From NCBI GenBank assembly GCA_964360065.1, contig CAYHTW010000001.1, forward strand, positions 86,289 to 150,288: 64,000 nucleotides of DNA. Reading direction: 5' to 3'. The DNA is from an uncultured Candidatus Saccharibacteria bacterium (GTDB taxonomy: Bacteria > Patescibacteriota > Minisyncoccia > UBA6257 > Colwellbacteraceae). This document shows positions 43,781 through 46,856 of this stretch, in pieces; the stretch's first letter is position 1; each line of letters starts with the position of its first letter. Below the pieces are notes generated by a model, which had not been told where the DNA came from, did no database searches, and saw only the letters and a list, made by a program, of their open reading frames with translations. The position numbers were made by a program, and so were the translations under genes.

Positions 43781-44353
43781 TTATGTTTCCAATATTGCGT
43801 TCAAGGCAGATTCCAGTTTTTCTACACCGTCATCGGCAGTGAAATGCCCCATATTACGCTCAACAATAATTTCAGCGTTAAATCTTTTCCTTAAGAGCTC
43901 TATATTTTCGCCATGTACGTGTGGGTCGTTGTCCGAAAAGATAGCCGTTATTTTGGGAGTGTGTTTAATAACATCCACTTCTTTAATCGAAGTATTAATC
44001 CATGGTGCAGCCACTTGCTGTTCCTCGTCGCTTTCTAAGTTAGACAAGGTAAGCCACGGCGCGATAAGCACCACGCCGCCGACTTTTACTTCCGGCTGTA
44101 ATCTCTCCAAATATCTCAAAATAGTTTGGCAACCGATAGAATGCCCTACGAGTATCGTATCTTTGTTCGGCACCCCGATTACTTCCTCAAGTTTAGAAAC
44201 CCAAGCTTCAATCTCCGGCTTTTCAGAGTTGGTCATTTCCGGCACAACAACCTCAAAGTCCTTCTTCTCTAATTCTGACTTCAGCCACTTATATAAAGGC
44301 TCGTGAGGAGTGCCTCCCCAACTGTGAATTATAAAAACTCTTTTTTGATTCAT
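43781..44353 (-). CDS. Alpha/beta hydrolase (RBBP9/YdeN-like serine hydrolase)
   Basis: GHSIGC nucleophile elbow; start moved to MNQKRVFIIHSWGG to avoid overlap. Confidence 0.6.
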   Translation of the reverse strand: MNQKRVFIIHSWGGTPHEPLYKWLKSELEKKDFEVVVPEMTNSEKPEIEAWVSKLEEVIGVPNKDTILVGHSIGCQTILRYLERLQPEVKVGGVVLIAPWLTLSNLESDEEQQVAAPWINTSIKEVDVIKHTPKITAIFSDNDPHVHGENIELLRKRFNAEIIVERNMGHFTADDGVEKLESALNAILET

Positions 44354-44360
44354 AAATTTA

Positions 44361-44756
44361 TCATCGCGAAATTTTGCTTCTTCTAACTTCCGTTTGGCGT
44401 ACCTGGGCTTCACTCATCCCGAAATGATGGGCTATTTCATGCCAAACGGTATTTTTAACTATCTCTTTTAAATCTTTTTCGTCCCGCGCTTCTGCCTCAA
44501 TCGATTTTTTAAAAATCGTGATTTTATCTGGAAGCACCGCGCTGTAGTTCGCCCCCCGCTCTAACCGCGACACGCCTTCGTATAAACCGAGTAATGTCCA
44601 TTTCTCGTGAATATTCAACTCCTTTTTTTGGACAGACGTCGGTTCGTCTTCAACAACAATAATCACATTATCTAACTTACGCAAAAACTTTTCCGGAATC
44701 GCGTTTATTCCTTCTCCAACAATTTTTTCAAATTCTTCCCTTTTTAACCTTCGCAT
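44361..44756 (-). CDS. Minimal MMP-like zinc metallopeptidase (COG3824-like)
   Basis: HEIAHHFG HExxH motif in about 130-aa protein. Confidence 0.6.
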   Translation of the reverse strand: MRRLKREEFEKIVGEGINAIPEKFLRKLDNVIIVVEDEPTSVQKKELNIHEKWTLLGLYEGVSRLERGANYSAVLPDKITIFKKSIEAEARDEKDLKEIVKNTVWHEIAHHFGMSEAQVRQTEVRRSKISR

Positions 44757-44875
44757 AAACTTGCCTATCTAATTTTTTATTGGCTAATTTTAGCTGACAA
44801 GGCTCTCCCAAAACTTTAATCCCTCTTTAACCGTCTTCTGGTTAACCTTATGGCGACTTACTTTTCATTGTTATC

Positions 44876-45076
44876 CTACTCCAGGCCCTCCTTAATCTCT
44901 TCAAATTTATTTTTAATACCCTTAAGTTTTGTTTTTAAGTCTTTGATTATTTCTGCTCCCTGCTTAACCTTCTCCAAACCTTCTTCCAGATCTATCTCTT
45001 CTTGTTTTTCAAACCACTCGGCAATGGATTCCAACTTGCTTAAAGATTCGCTTACTTTTTTATCGTTTTCTTTCAT
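44876..45076 (-). CDS. xseB: Exodeoxyribonuclease VII small subunit
   Basis: 66-aa helical protein, LEESLKKLE-type pattern, next to xseA. Confidence 0.75.
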   Translation of the reverse strand: MKENDKKVSESLSKLESIAEWFEKQEEIDLEEGLEKVKQGAEIIKDLKTKLKGIKNKFEEIKEGLE

Positions 45077-45098
45077 GTTTATTATTTTACCCCCACAC

Positions 45099-45359
45099 CT
45101 AATCGATTTTAAGACTTTTAGTAATTCTTCGTTTTAGTTGATTTAAAGCGTTAGCTCGCAATTTTAAATTATGTTCTCTGTGTCTGGCGTCCTCTTCCGA
45201 CTTATATGCCTCGCAATACACAAGCTCAAAAGGCGAACGATATTTTGTTGAACGACTTAATCCTTTGTTGTGTTCTAAAAGTCTTCTTTTCAAATTATTA
45301 GTGGAGCCGATATACAACTCTTTATCTACTTTACTCCTAATAATATAAACACAGAACAT
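45099..45359 (-). CDS. GIY-YIG nuclease family protein (YhbQ/UPF0213-like, 86 aa)
   Basis: VYIIRS..LYIGSTNNLKRRLLEHNKG GIY-YIG motif. Confidence 0.8.
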   Translation of the reverse strand: MFCVYIIRSKVDKELYIGSTNNLKRRLLEHNKGLSRSTKYRSPFELVYCEAYKSEEDARHREHNLKLRANALNQLKRRITKSLKID

Positions 45360-45383
45360 TAATTAAATCGATTAGGTGTGGGG
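45100..45383. mobile_element. GIY-YIG cassette bounded by perfect 20-bp terminal inverted repeats (CCCCCACACCTAATCGATTT / AAATCGATTAGGTGTGGGGG)
   Basis: IRs at 45100-45119 and 45364-45383; inserted exactly between xseA stop and xseB start; IRs supply the last codons of xseA (NPHT*) and of the GIY-YIG ORF (KID*). Confidence 0.55.
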
Positions 45384-46856
45384 GTTAATTTTCTTTATTT
45401 CCGACTCTACTTCTCCTTTATATAGCCTAGTTTTCAACTTCTCCCCTACTTTGAGGCCAGAGGTGTCTCTGACCACTTTACCAGAATTGTCGGTCACGAT
45501 GCTATACCCAAGCTTCAGATTTCTTTCCGGGCTCACTCCTTCCAGGTATTTACCGACATTCTCTACGCTCTTTAGAGCTGCCTCCAAAGCGCTTTCGTAT
45601 GAGTCTATAATAGACGATTTAAGGTTCTCAAACTTAACGAAGGCTCTTTCAAAGTAGCTTGTCATCTTGGACAGCGAAGAACCGACAAAGTTGTCGGCAG
45701 AACGAATACAGCCTTCGTAACGGTTAAAAATTGTCACCTCAAGTGAAGGCAGGCGAACAGTCAGTTTATCCCAAGAGGCATTTACTCTAATAGCAGCTCC
45801 TGTAGGAGTTGAGGGGGCGTCGTCTCCGACGAGACTTGAGATAGGAACGTCCTTGTGGTGGCCTATGGCGCAAATAGTGGGCACCCTAGAGGCAAATATG
45901 GCTTTAGCAACCAGTTCGTTATTAAAGGCTTGCAGGTCTTCTAGGCTTCCGCCGCCACGCATTACCACCATCACATCAAGTTTCATTCTTTCGGCGTTGC
46001 TGTTAAACCAAGAGAGAGCTTCGCAGATATCGTCCACCGCTCTGACTCCCTCCACTCTGACGTCTTTGAGGAAAACCTCAAAGCCAAGTTCTCTGAGGTT
46101 GTTTTTAAAATCCTCTATGACTGCTCCCTGGCGTGAGGTAACTACACCAATTCTTTTAATAAACTCGGGTAATTCTCTTTTTCTGGTGAATAAGCCTTCC
46201 TTTTCCAGCTTGGCCTTCAGGAGTTCGTAAGCTTTTTTAAGAGACCCTTCGCCGGTTAGCTCAAGAGTTTGAATGGTAAAACTAAACTTACTGGTCCTTT
46301 CTATAACTTTCGGGAAGCCTCCTACTTTAACTTTCATCCCCTCTTCCAGCTCCAAACCAAGGCTATCGTAGGTATAAAGCCTCATATAGCACTCCATTAT
46401 CCCTTCACCGCTTTCATCTTTTAAAGTTATATAAACTCCGGTGGTGTGTAATTTAATTGTCACTATTTCTCCGCAAACAGAAACATTCTGAGAATAAAGA
46501 ATGCTATTTACCTTGCTCAAAAATTCTCTGACCGAAAAAATAACTTCGCCCGTTTCGGTGAACTGTGTATTTTTCTCTTCTTCTTTTTTGAACGCCCAAC
46601 TCGATTCACCTTTAGTGATGGCTAAAATAGCCGGACCAAGCTCTTTGAGCTTCTTAGGGCCGATTCCTTTTATGCCTTCTAATTCTTTTAAAGTCTGCGG
46701 CATAGACTCGGCAATGAAATCTATTGTTTTATTCTGGAGAATTTTAAATCTCTCCTGGCCTGTCTTTTGCGCCAAGTCGTTTCTTAGGTCGGTGAGCCGT
46801 CTTATCGCCAACCAATTTTTATTTCTAAAGCTTTCAGCGAAGGGCAGAGTATCCAT
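45372..46856 (-). CDS. xseA: Exodeoxyribonuclease VII large subunit with about 100-aa N-terminal HhH extension
   Basis: OB fold + GVVTSRQGAVIEDF catalytic core; extra N-terminal LKELEGIKGIGPKKLKELGP HhH. Confidence 0.85.
   Translation of the reverse strand: MDTLPFAESFRNKNWLAIRRLTDLRNDLAQKTGQERFKILQNKTIDFIAESMPQTLKELEGIKGIGPKKLKELGPAILAITKGESSWAFKKEEEKNTQFTETGEVIFSVREFLSKVNSILYSQNVSVCGEIVTIKLHTTGVYITLKDESGEGIMECYMRLYTYDSLGLELEEGMKVKVGGFPKVIERTSKFSFTIQTLELTGEGSLKKAYELLKAKLEKEGLFTRKRELPEFIKRIGVVTSRQGAVIEDFKNNLRELGFEVFLKDVRVEGVRAVDDICEALSWFNSNAERMKLDVMVVMRGGGSLEDLQAFNNELVAKAIFASRVPTICAIGHHKDVPISSLVGDDAPSTPTGAAIRVNASWDKLTVRLPSLEVTIFNRYEGCIRSADNFVGSSLSKMTSYFERAFVKFENLKSSIIDSYESALEAALKSVENVGKYLEGVSPERNLKLGYSIVTDNSGKVVRDTSGLKVGEKLKTRLYKGEVESEIKKINPHT

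Follow-up and report, generated by a model that had tools for sequence, protein, structure and literature searches.

The closest described counterparts of the locus considered here are the Ssn enzymes, small single-domain GIY-YIG proteins (CDD cd10448, GIY-YIG_unchar_3) that cleave single-stranded DNA (ssDNA) site-specifically beside a hairpin repeat (NTS/SRM). The ssn genes are themselves typically flanked by these hairpins, cleavage persists when the two hairpin halves lie on separate strands, and the NTS-ssnA-NTS arrangement has been likened to an insertion sequence and compared with REP/RAYT systems (Chenal et al., Nat Commun 2025, PMC11893778). We analysed a 64,000-nucleotide (nt) stretch of contig CAYHTW010000001.1 from an uncultured Candidatus Saccharibacteria bacterium, hereafter the 64-kb window or simply the window, in which a small GIY-YIG gene bracketed by terminal inverted repeats lies between xseA and xseB, the genes for the two subunits of exonuclease VII. 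We consider it probable that this cassette is a selfish mini mobile element that inserted at the xseA stop codon and consists of the nuclease gene, two 20-bp terminal repeats and, probably, a 13-nt tail. It belongs to a large family in the Patescibacteria, or candidate phyla radiation (CPR), that is apparently undescribed in the searchable literature, with the Ssn/SRM system as its closest known relative; our literature searches on the repeat motif, on GIY-YIG transposases and on COG2827, UPF0213 and YhbQ returned nothing related beyond the Ssn paper.

Several features are common to the two systems. Both rely on a small single-domain GIY-YIG protein of about 85-100 amino acids (aa), in both the gene is bracketed by inverted cognate repeats, variants of repeat and nuclease come in pairs, and repeat copies without a gene occur. 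An earlier sequence-only reading of this DNA had remarked that small GIY-YIG genes are rarely described with terminal repeats; with Ssn known since 2025 (PMC11893778) this no longer stands as a general statement, although it keeps its force in that the Ssn repeat and architecture differ from those found here.

The cassette measures 295 bp from outer arm end to outer arm end (45090..45384), and xseA, the GIY-YIG gene and xseB are all read from the minus strand. In gene orientation, the upstream arm CCCCCACACCTAATCGATTT (45365..45384) bears the final xseA codons (..PHT) and the TAA stop (45372-45374), such that XseA ends in ..N-P-H-T, while the downstream arm, AAATCGATTAGGTGTGGGGG in minus-strand reading (45090..45109), bears the final GIY-YIG codons K-I-D and the TAG stop (45099-45101). 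Between them lies an 86-aa open reading frame (ORF; 45099..45359) identified as a GIY-YIG nuclease by Pfam (PF01541, E=3e-18), by the family alignment and by an AlphaFold2 model. The upstream neighbour, xseA (45372..46856, 494 aa, large subunit, with Pfam HRDC, OB-fold and Exonuc_VII_L domains), has its C terminus extended by the arm-encoded P-H-T; the downstream neighbour, xseB (44876..45076, 66 aa, small subunit, assigned by Pfam), is parted from xseA by the insertion. A 13-nt tail, TAAAATAATAAAC (45077..45089, minus strand), leads from the downstream arm to the xseB ATG, and the tetranucleotides that flank the arms on this strand, TTAA upstream (45385..45388) and TAAA downstream in minus-strand reading (45086..45089), form an imperfect direct repeat. 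The sequence-only reading was right about the perfect 20-bp repeats, about the 86-aa ORF between them and about the way each repeat supplies the last codons and stop of a neighbouring frame, but it misplaced the arms (at 45100-45119 and 45364-45383) and consequently gave the cassette 284 bp.

The two arms, CCCCCACACCTAATCGATTT and its exact reverse complement, are perfect over 20 nt and 96% complementary over 24 nt, and none of 100 shuffles gave any chance match to a 20-nt arm. Each arm is non-palindromic, and a stem can form only from arm to arm, across a 255-nt intervening segment. As in the rest of the family, each arm has a conserved outer part of 13 nt and an inner part of 7 nt that co-varies with the other arm. 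Within the 64-kb window the core CCCCCACACC is confined to the two arms: no dispersed expansion of the repeat was found, nor any further arm copy (20-mer, up to 3 mismatches), any other match to the 10-nt core (up to 1 mismatch) or, by tblastn, any second GIY-YIG gene.

From its position the element appears adapted to do little harm to its host, in that the upstream arm gives xseA an in-frame TAA and the G-rich downstream arm and tail stand just before the xseB ATG. Across the family, placement of the downstream arm as a Shine-Dalgarno sequence for the next gene is modestly enriched, in that 11 of 63 starts fall at +3 to +12, compared with 6% of random positions. A weak promoter-like match (TTAAAA, 17-nt spacer, TAAAAT; 9/12, by consensus only) faces xseB on the minus strand at 45084-45112, covering the downstream arm and the 13-nt tail.

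Comparison with relatives shows that the junction is occupied sporadically. Where the cassette is missing, xseA and xseB are adjacent, with 0, 1 or 12 nt between them, which bears out the earlier expectation that the two genes are normally contiguous. The XseA relatives form two clades. Clade A comprises the window XseA and relatives at 91, 86, 77 and 71% identity, whose XseA ends in ..SEIKKIN or ..KKIK before the stop, without the PHT extension; clade B is 63-67% identical to clade A. In clade A, the locus with 91% identical XseA (L091) has an empty junction at which xseA passes directly into xseB (..aaataaatTAAATGggt), and that with 79% identical XseA (L092) is empty with a 12-nt spacer. In clade B, one lineage has this junction filled by the cassette (P0131; loci L093, L094, L119, L204, L110 and L240), while sister lineages at 85-88% identity are empty (L235, L236 and L237; ..actaaaTAAtATGggg). 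Each clade thus contains one filled lineage, and the empty-site comparison proposed by the sequence-only reading, made with L091, L092 and two members of the more distant clade (L235 and L236), finds xseA followed directly by xseB. That reading had suggested a minimal mobile or homing cassette, to be abandoned if the 20-mer had occurred only here and relatives had carried the same arrangement with diverged repeats. All the checks that it proposed speak for the suggestion: the nearest relatives lack the cassette, that of the distant carrier is 92% identical, and the same repeats flank other homologues.

The precise point of entry is less sharply defined. The breakpoint lies no more than about 3 nt from the ancestral xseA stop, and a search of the 90% XseA cluster for a near-identical empty allele found none. 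The 13 nt that separate the downstream arm from the xseB ATG, TAAAATAATAAA(C/A), are present in both filled lineages, with 12 of 13 nt in common, and in no empty site, indicating that they travel with the element. From this distribution they are probably part of the element, that is, of the transferred DNA, or else a flank copied along with it.

The cassette has moved between host lineages. Between the window and the clade B carrier, nucleotide identity is 91.6% for the cassette, compared with 66.5% for xseA (56% over its last 100 nt) and 75% for xseB. Among conserved residues, identical codons make up 82% in the GIY-YIG gene but only 45% in xseA and 47% in xseB; even the closest empty relative of the window (L091) reaches no more than 70% for xseA and 65% for xseB. 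Because the cassette is far more similar than the host genes, synonymous sites included, it must have entered at least one of the lineages horizontally after the hosts diverged, and this pair already contradicts congruence between element and host, since the element has diverged less than the genes that flank it. Of the 20 codons that differ between the two GIY-YIG genes, 14 are synonymous, which argues that the gene is under purifying selection. The clade B arms (CCACCACACC.. and ..GGTGTGGTGG) differ by a compensatory C>A / G>T double change that keeps the pairing perfect. Target sites are diverse. The homologues whose proteins most resemble the window nuclease (82-83% identical) lie in unrelated contexts, namely between DUF167 and patatin genes, upstream of ligA and upstream of hicB, and neither xseA nor xseB was found near a family member in 80 GTDB loci; all variants at least 93% identical in protein are located at the xseA-xseB junction.

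The family as a whole is large. Parcubacteria and other Patescibacteria encode hundreds of homologues 65-85% identical, a homologue is present in at least 557 GTDB species (one genome per species scanned), and a profile search of 1.84 billion cluster representatives matched 3,649 clusters at E<=1e-10. Arms were sought around 85 homologue ORFs in 80 retrieved GTDB loci, all from other species, and 62 of the 85 proved to be bracketed by an inverted pair with the outer core CCCCCACACC ... GGTGTGGGGG, which answers in the affirmative the earlier question of whether other GIY-YIG homologues have the same kind of repeats. Elements are usually 280-345 bp long, and relative to neighbouring genes 35 lie on the same strand and 19-22 on the opposite one. 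The outer 13 bp of the arms, CCCCCACACCWAW, constitute a family-wide signature, and the inner 7 bp are free to change while the arms stay complementary. Some other genomes of the family also bear extra gene-less copies of the core.

Searches outside these loci were less productive. A metagenome scan with the arm 16-mer returned 108 stretches, most of them single chance matches and only seven real elements (L110, L119, L129, L193, L197, L204 and L212). In the plasmid collection, tblastn found only two distant homologues, one of them an SRM-flanked Azospirillum protein discussed below. Viral contigs, mostly large phage contigs, yielded 17 distant homologues (36-65% identical, many partial), of which 12 near-full-length ones are 44-47% identical; no flanking inverted repeat was found in the six checked (L218, L220, L221 and L228 among them), which gives no evidence of a phage vector. 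Many of the IMG/VR contigs concerned (L218-L229) are about 200 kb long, and the 44-47% identity of their GIY-YIG proteins to the window protein extends over residues 2-66. Many of the cluster representatives whose match to the family profile spans residues 1-80 (for example P0242, P0252, P0264, P0294 and P0335) are 200-600 aa long; they may represent fusions, or nuclease ORFs that read through into a downstream host gene.

The arms appear to be more than conserved binding sites. In an unselected set of 64 distinct arm pairs, median stem length is 20 bp. Positions 1-13 show a conserved sequence and a complementarity of 94-100%, whereas positions 14-20 are variable and yet 69-88% Watson-Crick, with all four pair types represented (at position 15, AT 15, TA 13, CG 12 and GC 10). 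From position 21 onward pairing drops to 16-41%, the background level, after pair 20 or 21. Pairing in the inner part amounts to 83%, compared with 42% for permuted partners (maximum 49% in 1000 permutations), and the covariation score is 0.53, compared with 0.14 for shuffles (0 of 500 reach the observed value) and 0.06-0.13 for slid registers. This score was computed on 42 gap-free-aligning pairs, and the exclusion of arms with indels leans towards pairing; the unselected set agrees. Watson-Crick covariation over a fixed 20 bp argues for stem formation rather than protein binding alone, and selection maintains a 20-bp stem between the arms, the 13 bp at its base being conserved. Wobble-type mismatches show no preference for either strand (34 versus 40), with no excess of G-U over A-C, which points to complementarity at the level of DNA rather than to an RNA stem.

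Signatures of transposition are seen at the level of the family. A perfect 4-nt direct repeat lies just outside the arms in 26 of 63 elements, against 4.0 expected (permutation, maximum 11), with the consensus T-N-A-A and a G-enriched stretch in the next 4 nt upstream. The left copy consists of the upstream gene's stop codon plus A, abutting the arm, in 12 loci, and a stop lies within 1-2 nt in three more; this coincidence of direct repeats with upstream stop codons indicates that the family inserts at gene ends. Several elements abut instead the 5' end of an RNA gene, encoding either a tRNA (L037, L040, L043, L045, L046, L052, L071 and L074) or a transfer-messenger RNA (tmRNA; L079). In these the final 3-5 nt of the right arm are the first nucleotides of the RNA gene, and several have the variant core GCCCCTCACC at the arm terminus. 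At five of six tRNA genes a duplicate of the initial 9 nt of the tRNA lies on the far side of the element (in one case with a single mismatch); at the sixth (L052) the duplicate is 7 nt long.

Non-autonomous copies resembling miniature inverted-repeat transposable elements (MITEs) accompany the full elements. Gene-less units of 28-140 nt share the same cores (60 extra cores against 17 expected in 552 kb), and 8-9 of the 12 examined have perfect 4-nt flanking repeats. One Patescibacteria contig (L058; 1134-1575, 1726-1760 and 2797-3245) holds a gene-less unit and a full element in tandem with TTGA between them, as well as a minimal hairpin whose arms abut. A further nuclease encoded there is diverged (52% identical) and has a core of its own, TCCCCCACCT / AGGTGGGGGA, with gene-less units of that core on both sides; from such sequences, nuclease subtype and arm core appear to co-vary. 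Insertions are also nested. In the elements of P0005 and P0006, a 100-nt gene-less unit flanked by TTTA/TTTA sits between the left arm and the ATG, and the resulting composite element is present at different sites, itself flanked by TTTA/TTTA or TTGA/TTGA.

Where the composite element lies upstream of ligA (L100/L101/L104 and L109), its left flank encodes an N-terminal LigA-like fragment, MDKKTAKERIDQLKKTINYHRYL or ..KQRIEQLKK, and a complete ligA with a different N-terminal sequence begins just to its right. Judging by these sequences, it looks as if a displaced 5' fragment of ligA was left behind and a replacement 5' end moved in with the element.

The encoded protein is a compact nuclease. 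Its catalytic residues (Y5, Y16, R26, H30, E62 and N64) are invariant in the family alignment, and the AlphaFold2 model (predicted local distance difference test score 90) displays the GIY-YIG fold, a three-stranded sheet with helices, followed by one C-terminal helix and no extra domain. The best matches by sequence among solved structures are the UPF0213 proteins BH0048 and EF2693 (1zg2, E=4e-10, and 1ywl); by fold, the best is the SLX1 nuclease domain, with a root-mean-square deviation of 1.4 A over 70 residues, and then the catalytic domain of I-TevI. NCBIfam and PHROGs gave only sub-threshold matches to homing endonucleases or to UvrC N-terminal regions, among them TIGR01453, which matched residues 4-39 only and fell below the family cut-off. 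No known transposase class (DDE, DEDD, HUH, serine, tyrosine or Cas1) was found in the cassette, whose sole ORF is the 86-aa GIY-YIG domain, and a search for a Y1 HUH transposase with Pfam and NCBIfam gave GIY-YIG matches only.

These observations make it likely that the cassette belongs to a mobile family, and its movement might be envisaged as follows. Where DNA is single-stranded, as in replication, in repair or during uptake, or is extruded as a cruciform, pairing of the arms would give the 20-bp stem and leave the gene in the loop. Kin to the Ssn ssDNA hairpin nucleases and to the structure-selective SLX1, the nuclease would recognise the conserved stem base and cut a few nucleotides outside the stem; the same preference, for a G-run followed by T-N-A-A, would set the targets, and excision and insertion would be finished by repair, ligation or recombination functions of the host. 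To spread between lineages into this one xseA-xseB junction, the element may also use recombination anchored in the flanking genes. That a nuclease acts on a hairpin in this way is plausible by analogy; stem recognition by the window protein, in particular, is plausible because its fold relative SLX1 is structure-selective. The 4-10-nt repeats, the 9-nt duplication at tRNA genes, the 5' ligA fragment and the 13-nt flank common to the filled clades sit poorly with a simple staggered cut and suggest steps that depend on microhomology or recombination, and homology-facilitated transfer between lineages, of which this junction is one possible case, would explain why it was hit twice.

A number of points weigh against a self-mobile element. 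The window flanks both fit T-N-A-A yet match each other at only 3/4 positions, and neither the exact breakpoint nor a duplication can be fixed against relatives 79-91% identical: XseA divergence from the closest empty relatives is 9-21%, and the junction itself differs by indels. The element is present as a single copy, with no other core motif and no second GIY-YIG gene in 64 kb. Direct repeats in the family range from 4 to 10 nt, often running into the G-run, and reach 9 nt at tRNA genes, which a fixed staggered cut does not explain. Recombination transfer, as opposed to site-specific transposition, could account both for the filling of the same junction in two clades and for the common 13-nt flank. 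Arms could not be detected at about a quarter of the homologue ORFs, and the 34 versus 40 wobble-type pairs carry no strand information on whether single- or double-stranded DNA is recognised. Finally, a protein of 86 aa is too short to accommodate a separate domain for DNA binding or strand transfer, and we know of no GIY-YIG protein demonstrated to be a transposase.

The alternative that survives best, although we judge it unlikely, is that the gene encodes a domesticated Ssn-type host nuclease, for example one that restricts or modulates transforming ssDNA as SsnA does in Neisseria, with the arms serving as recognition or autoregulatory sites and the locus no longer, or never, a transposon. 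In its favour is homology to a protein encoded in canonical Ssn surroundings: over the catalytic core, the window protein shares 41% identity (E=4e-14; hhalign probability 97.8%) with WP_014249537, an Ssn-type protein of Azospirillum lipoferum 4B plasmid AZO_p3 (L095; NC_016623.1, 255506-255799) whose gene is accompanied by four canonical SRM hairpins, CGTCATCCCCGCGAAGGCGGGGATCCAG. Purifying selection on the ORF with conserved catalytic residues, the single copy in the window, the very wide retention of the family in Patescibacteria, which are thought to rely on DNA uptake, and the canonical SRM hairpins beside diverged paralogues in some CPR loci are likewise in keeping with a host function. 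Yet with no dispersed target sites in 64 kb, such an enzyme would have only its own flanks to act on, and the SRM motif is absent from the window. The gene is also missing from the nearest relatives and has entered two lineages horizontally, and the 4-nt flanking duplications, the gene-less copies that share them and the nested insertions point to transposition.

Those diverged paralogues deserve mention in their own right. Second GIY-YIG genes with other flanking repeats, and stand-alone canonical NTS-like hairpins, are present in CPR contigs (L020, 5028-5318; L029, 6826-7171; L030, 1773; L085, 542 and 1177). The gene of L020 is flanked by the pair CCCTGTTAAATAA.. / ..TTATTTAACAGGG and that of L029 by a canonical SRM hairpin. 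The differing repeats suggest that several nuclease-repeat systems coexist in CPR genomes.

Less probable still is a free-standing homing endonuclease gene, in which the enzyme would cut an empty xseA-xseB junction and double-strand-break repair, templated by a copy that bears the cassette, would install it, the inverted repeat being incidental or regulatory only. Genes of this kind, such as T4 Seg/Mob and I-TevI, do share with the cassette the catalytic fold and the sporadic presence at one intergenic junction. Homing would also suit the filling of that junction in two diverged clades, each with empty sister lineages, the restriction of variants at least 93% identical to this site, a 13-nt flank that moves with the cassette in the manner of co-conversion, and the weak profile matches to homing endonucleases (TIGR01453, PHROGs). 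The window protein, however, lacks their linker and DNA-binding domain: it has 86 aa, compared with 200-300 aa for I-TevI or Seg-type enzymes, and is modelled as a catalytic domain plus one helix. Homing endonuclease genes have no terminal repeats, target duplications or miniature derivatives, and homing neither needs nor makes a co-varying 20-bp terminal repeat, 4-nt duplications or gene-less derivatives. Homologues 82-83% identical stand at unrelated sites, and flanking genes only 66-75% identical between clades offer poor homology for repair copying.

The weakest alternative, raised by the sequence-only reading and in our estimation very improbable, is a regulatory RNA structure in which the arms form a 20-bp stem in the xseA-GIY-xseB transcript and control translation or stability of the nuclease and/or xseB: the minus-strand RNA does fold with a closed 21-bp stem (z = -5.1 versus shuffles), the GIY-YIG start codon lies 5 nt inside it without a Shine-Dalgarno sequence, such that the stem would plausibly keep nuclease expression low, and such a role could coexist with mobility, but the gene keeps its arms in both orientations and in over 60 unrelated contexts, sense-strand mismatches show no G-U bias, gene-less units retain arms and flanking duplications, insertion polymorphism is left unexplained, and a permissive Rfam search of 44700-45600 matched no family, its sole match being a chance miRNA (E=0.55).

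If the cassette is, as we think, a mini mobile element, its family may be among the smallest self-contained mobile elements known. A bolder proposition, which we advance tentatively and would not yet expect to hold, is that it represents a new class of autonomous transposon, in which a GIY-YIG protein of about 85 aa is the sole element-encoded function and recognises the 20-bp stem of its own ends, producing 4-bp duplications preferentially at stop codons, and that these elements of 280-320 bp are the smallest autonomous mobile DNA elements. The smallest known autonomous insertion sequences measure about 600-700 bp, and the 295-bp cassette is less than half that size. Were the elements self-mobile, GIY-YIG would become a sixth catalytic class of prokaryotic transposases and the lower size limit of an autonomous mobile element would move to about 0.3 kb; were the new class real, it would be a source of compact hairpin-guided ssDNA nucleases with recognition sites readable from the arms.

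The family supplies matched pairs of nuclease and site, the latter readable from the 13-bp conserved arm core. Ssn ssDNA nucleases gain a plausible origin in mobile elements, which their discoverers only hypothesised, and the link can now be tested. In Patescibacteria genomics, such elements would account for the abundance of small GIY-YIG genes and for frequent flags of horizontal transfer, and their insertion points mark spots that are harmless to the host, including stop codons, the 5' ends of tRNA and tmRNA genes and operon interiors. Annotators should be aware that C-terminal extensions of neighbouring genes, such as the terminal ..PHT of XseA, derive from the element.

Some features of the neighbourhood may be recorded here. 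The XseA of this lineage has an N-terminal HRDC domain (PF00570, E=6e-16; residues 18-80, window 46617-46805) ahead of its OB-fold and catalytic domains, which is missing from many other Patescibacteria XseA matches of about 375-470 aa. Downstream of xseB, on the minus strand, a Zincin_1 ORF (44361-44756) and a serine-hydrolase ORF (43781-44413) overlap by 53 nt (44361-44413); the GTG start of the hydrolase has probably been called too far upstream. PADLOC defence models gave no meaningful match.

Set against known systems, the cassette resembles several without coinciding with any. UPF0213/YhbQ/YazA proteins and SLX1 provide the best solved-structure matches by sequence and fold, respectively. 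UPF0213 genes, however, are stable chromosomal genes with conserved synteny (between trmN6 and rsmI in Bacillales) and no described flanking repeats, and SLX1 has an extra RING domain and a partner protein. We ruled out a stable UPF0213/YhbQ chromosomal gene, as the gene here is an insertion with terminal repeats and its family occupies diverse contexts.

RAYT/REPtrons and IS200/IS605 elements resemble the cassette in having a single small gene, inverted structured repeats, gene-less repeats elsewhere and a presumed recognition of ssDNA hairpins, but their enzyme is a Y1 HUH transposase rather than a GIY-YIG nuclease, and in IS200/IS605 the hairpins are subterminal, with neither terminal inverted repeats nor target duplication. 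Classical insertion sequences and MITEs, such as IS630/Tc1 with its TA duplication or the Correia elements of Neisseria, share with the window's family terminal inverted repeats, gene-less miniatures, nested insertions and presence/absence polymorphism, and their short target duplications have a probable counterpart in the direct repeats that flank family members; they differ in that the window cassette encodes no DDE, serine, tyrosine or HUH transposase. Measured by the structural criteria for an insertion sequence, the cassette has perfect 20-bp terminal inverted repeats (median 20 bp across 64 members) and presence/absence polymorphism with differing sites, seen in the empty junctions of L091, L092, L235 and L236 and in the 82-83% identical homologues elsewhere. 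In structure it is thus an insertion sequence, with miniature derivatives and, at the family level, target-site-like duplications, but it encodes no known class of transposase.

The comparison with Ssn remains the most instructive. The Azospirillum Ssn-type gene lies between sufB and sufC, inside an operon as the window cassette does at xseA-xseB. The repeats of the two systems, on the other hand, are unrelated in sequence, and each SRM is itself a hairpin of 20-50 nt, whereas the window stem forms only between two non-palindromic arms. The pattern HGTCWYN(0-2)YYVSBRHN(0-5)WNVSBRGN(0-2)RNCYNB has 0 matches in the 64-kb window and 4 around the Azospirillum gene with the same script; with neither an SRM motif nor a dispersed repeat in the window, we rejected its assignment as a canonical Ssn/SRM locus. 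The protein, related both to the SRM-flanked homologue and, by profile, to UPF0213 (E=4e-10), differs from Ssn-type proteins in its C-terminal third (..REHNLKLRANALNQLKRRI.. compared with ..REKRLKKWNRDWKIRLIEEHNPDW..), and nothing has been reported for Ssn that matches the nested insertions, the filled and empty alleles or the target-site-like duplications of 4 bp in the window's family. By analogy, the cassette probably works in the manner of Ssn, its GIY-YIG nuclease acting on a DNA stem with specificity for both structure and sequence, as a distinct variant rather than a member of that system.

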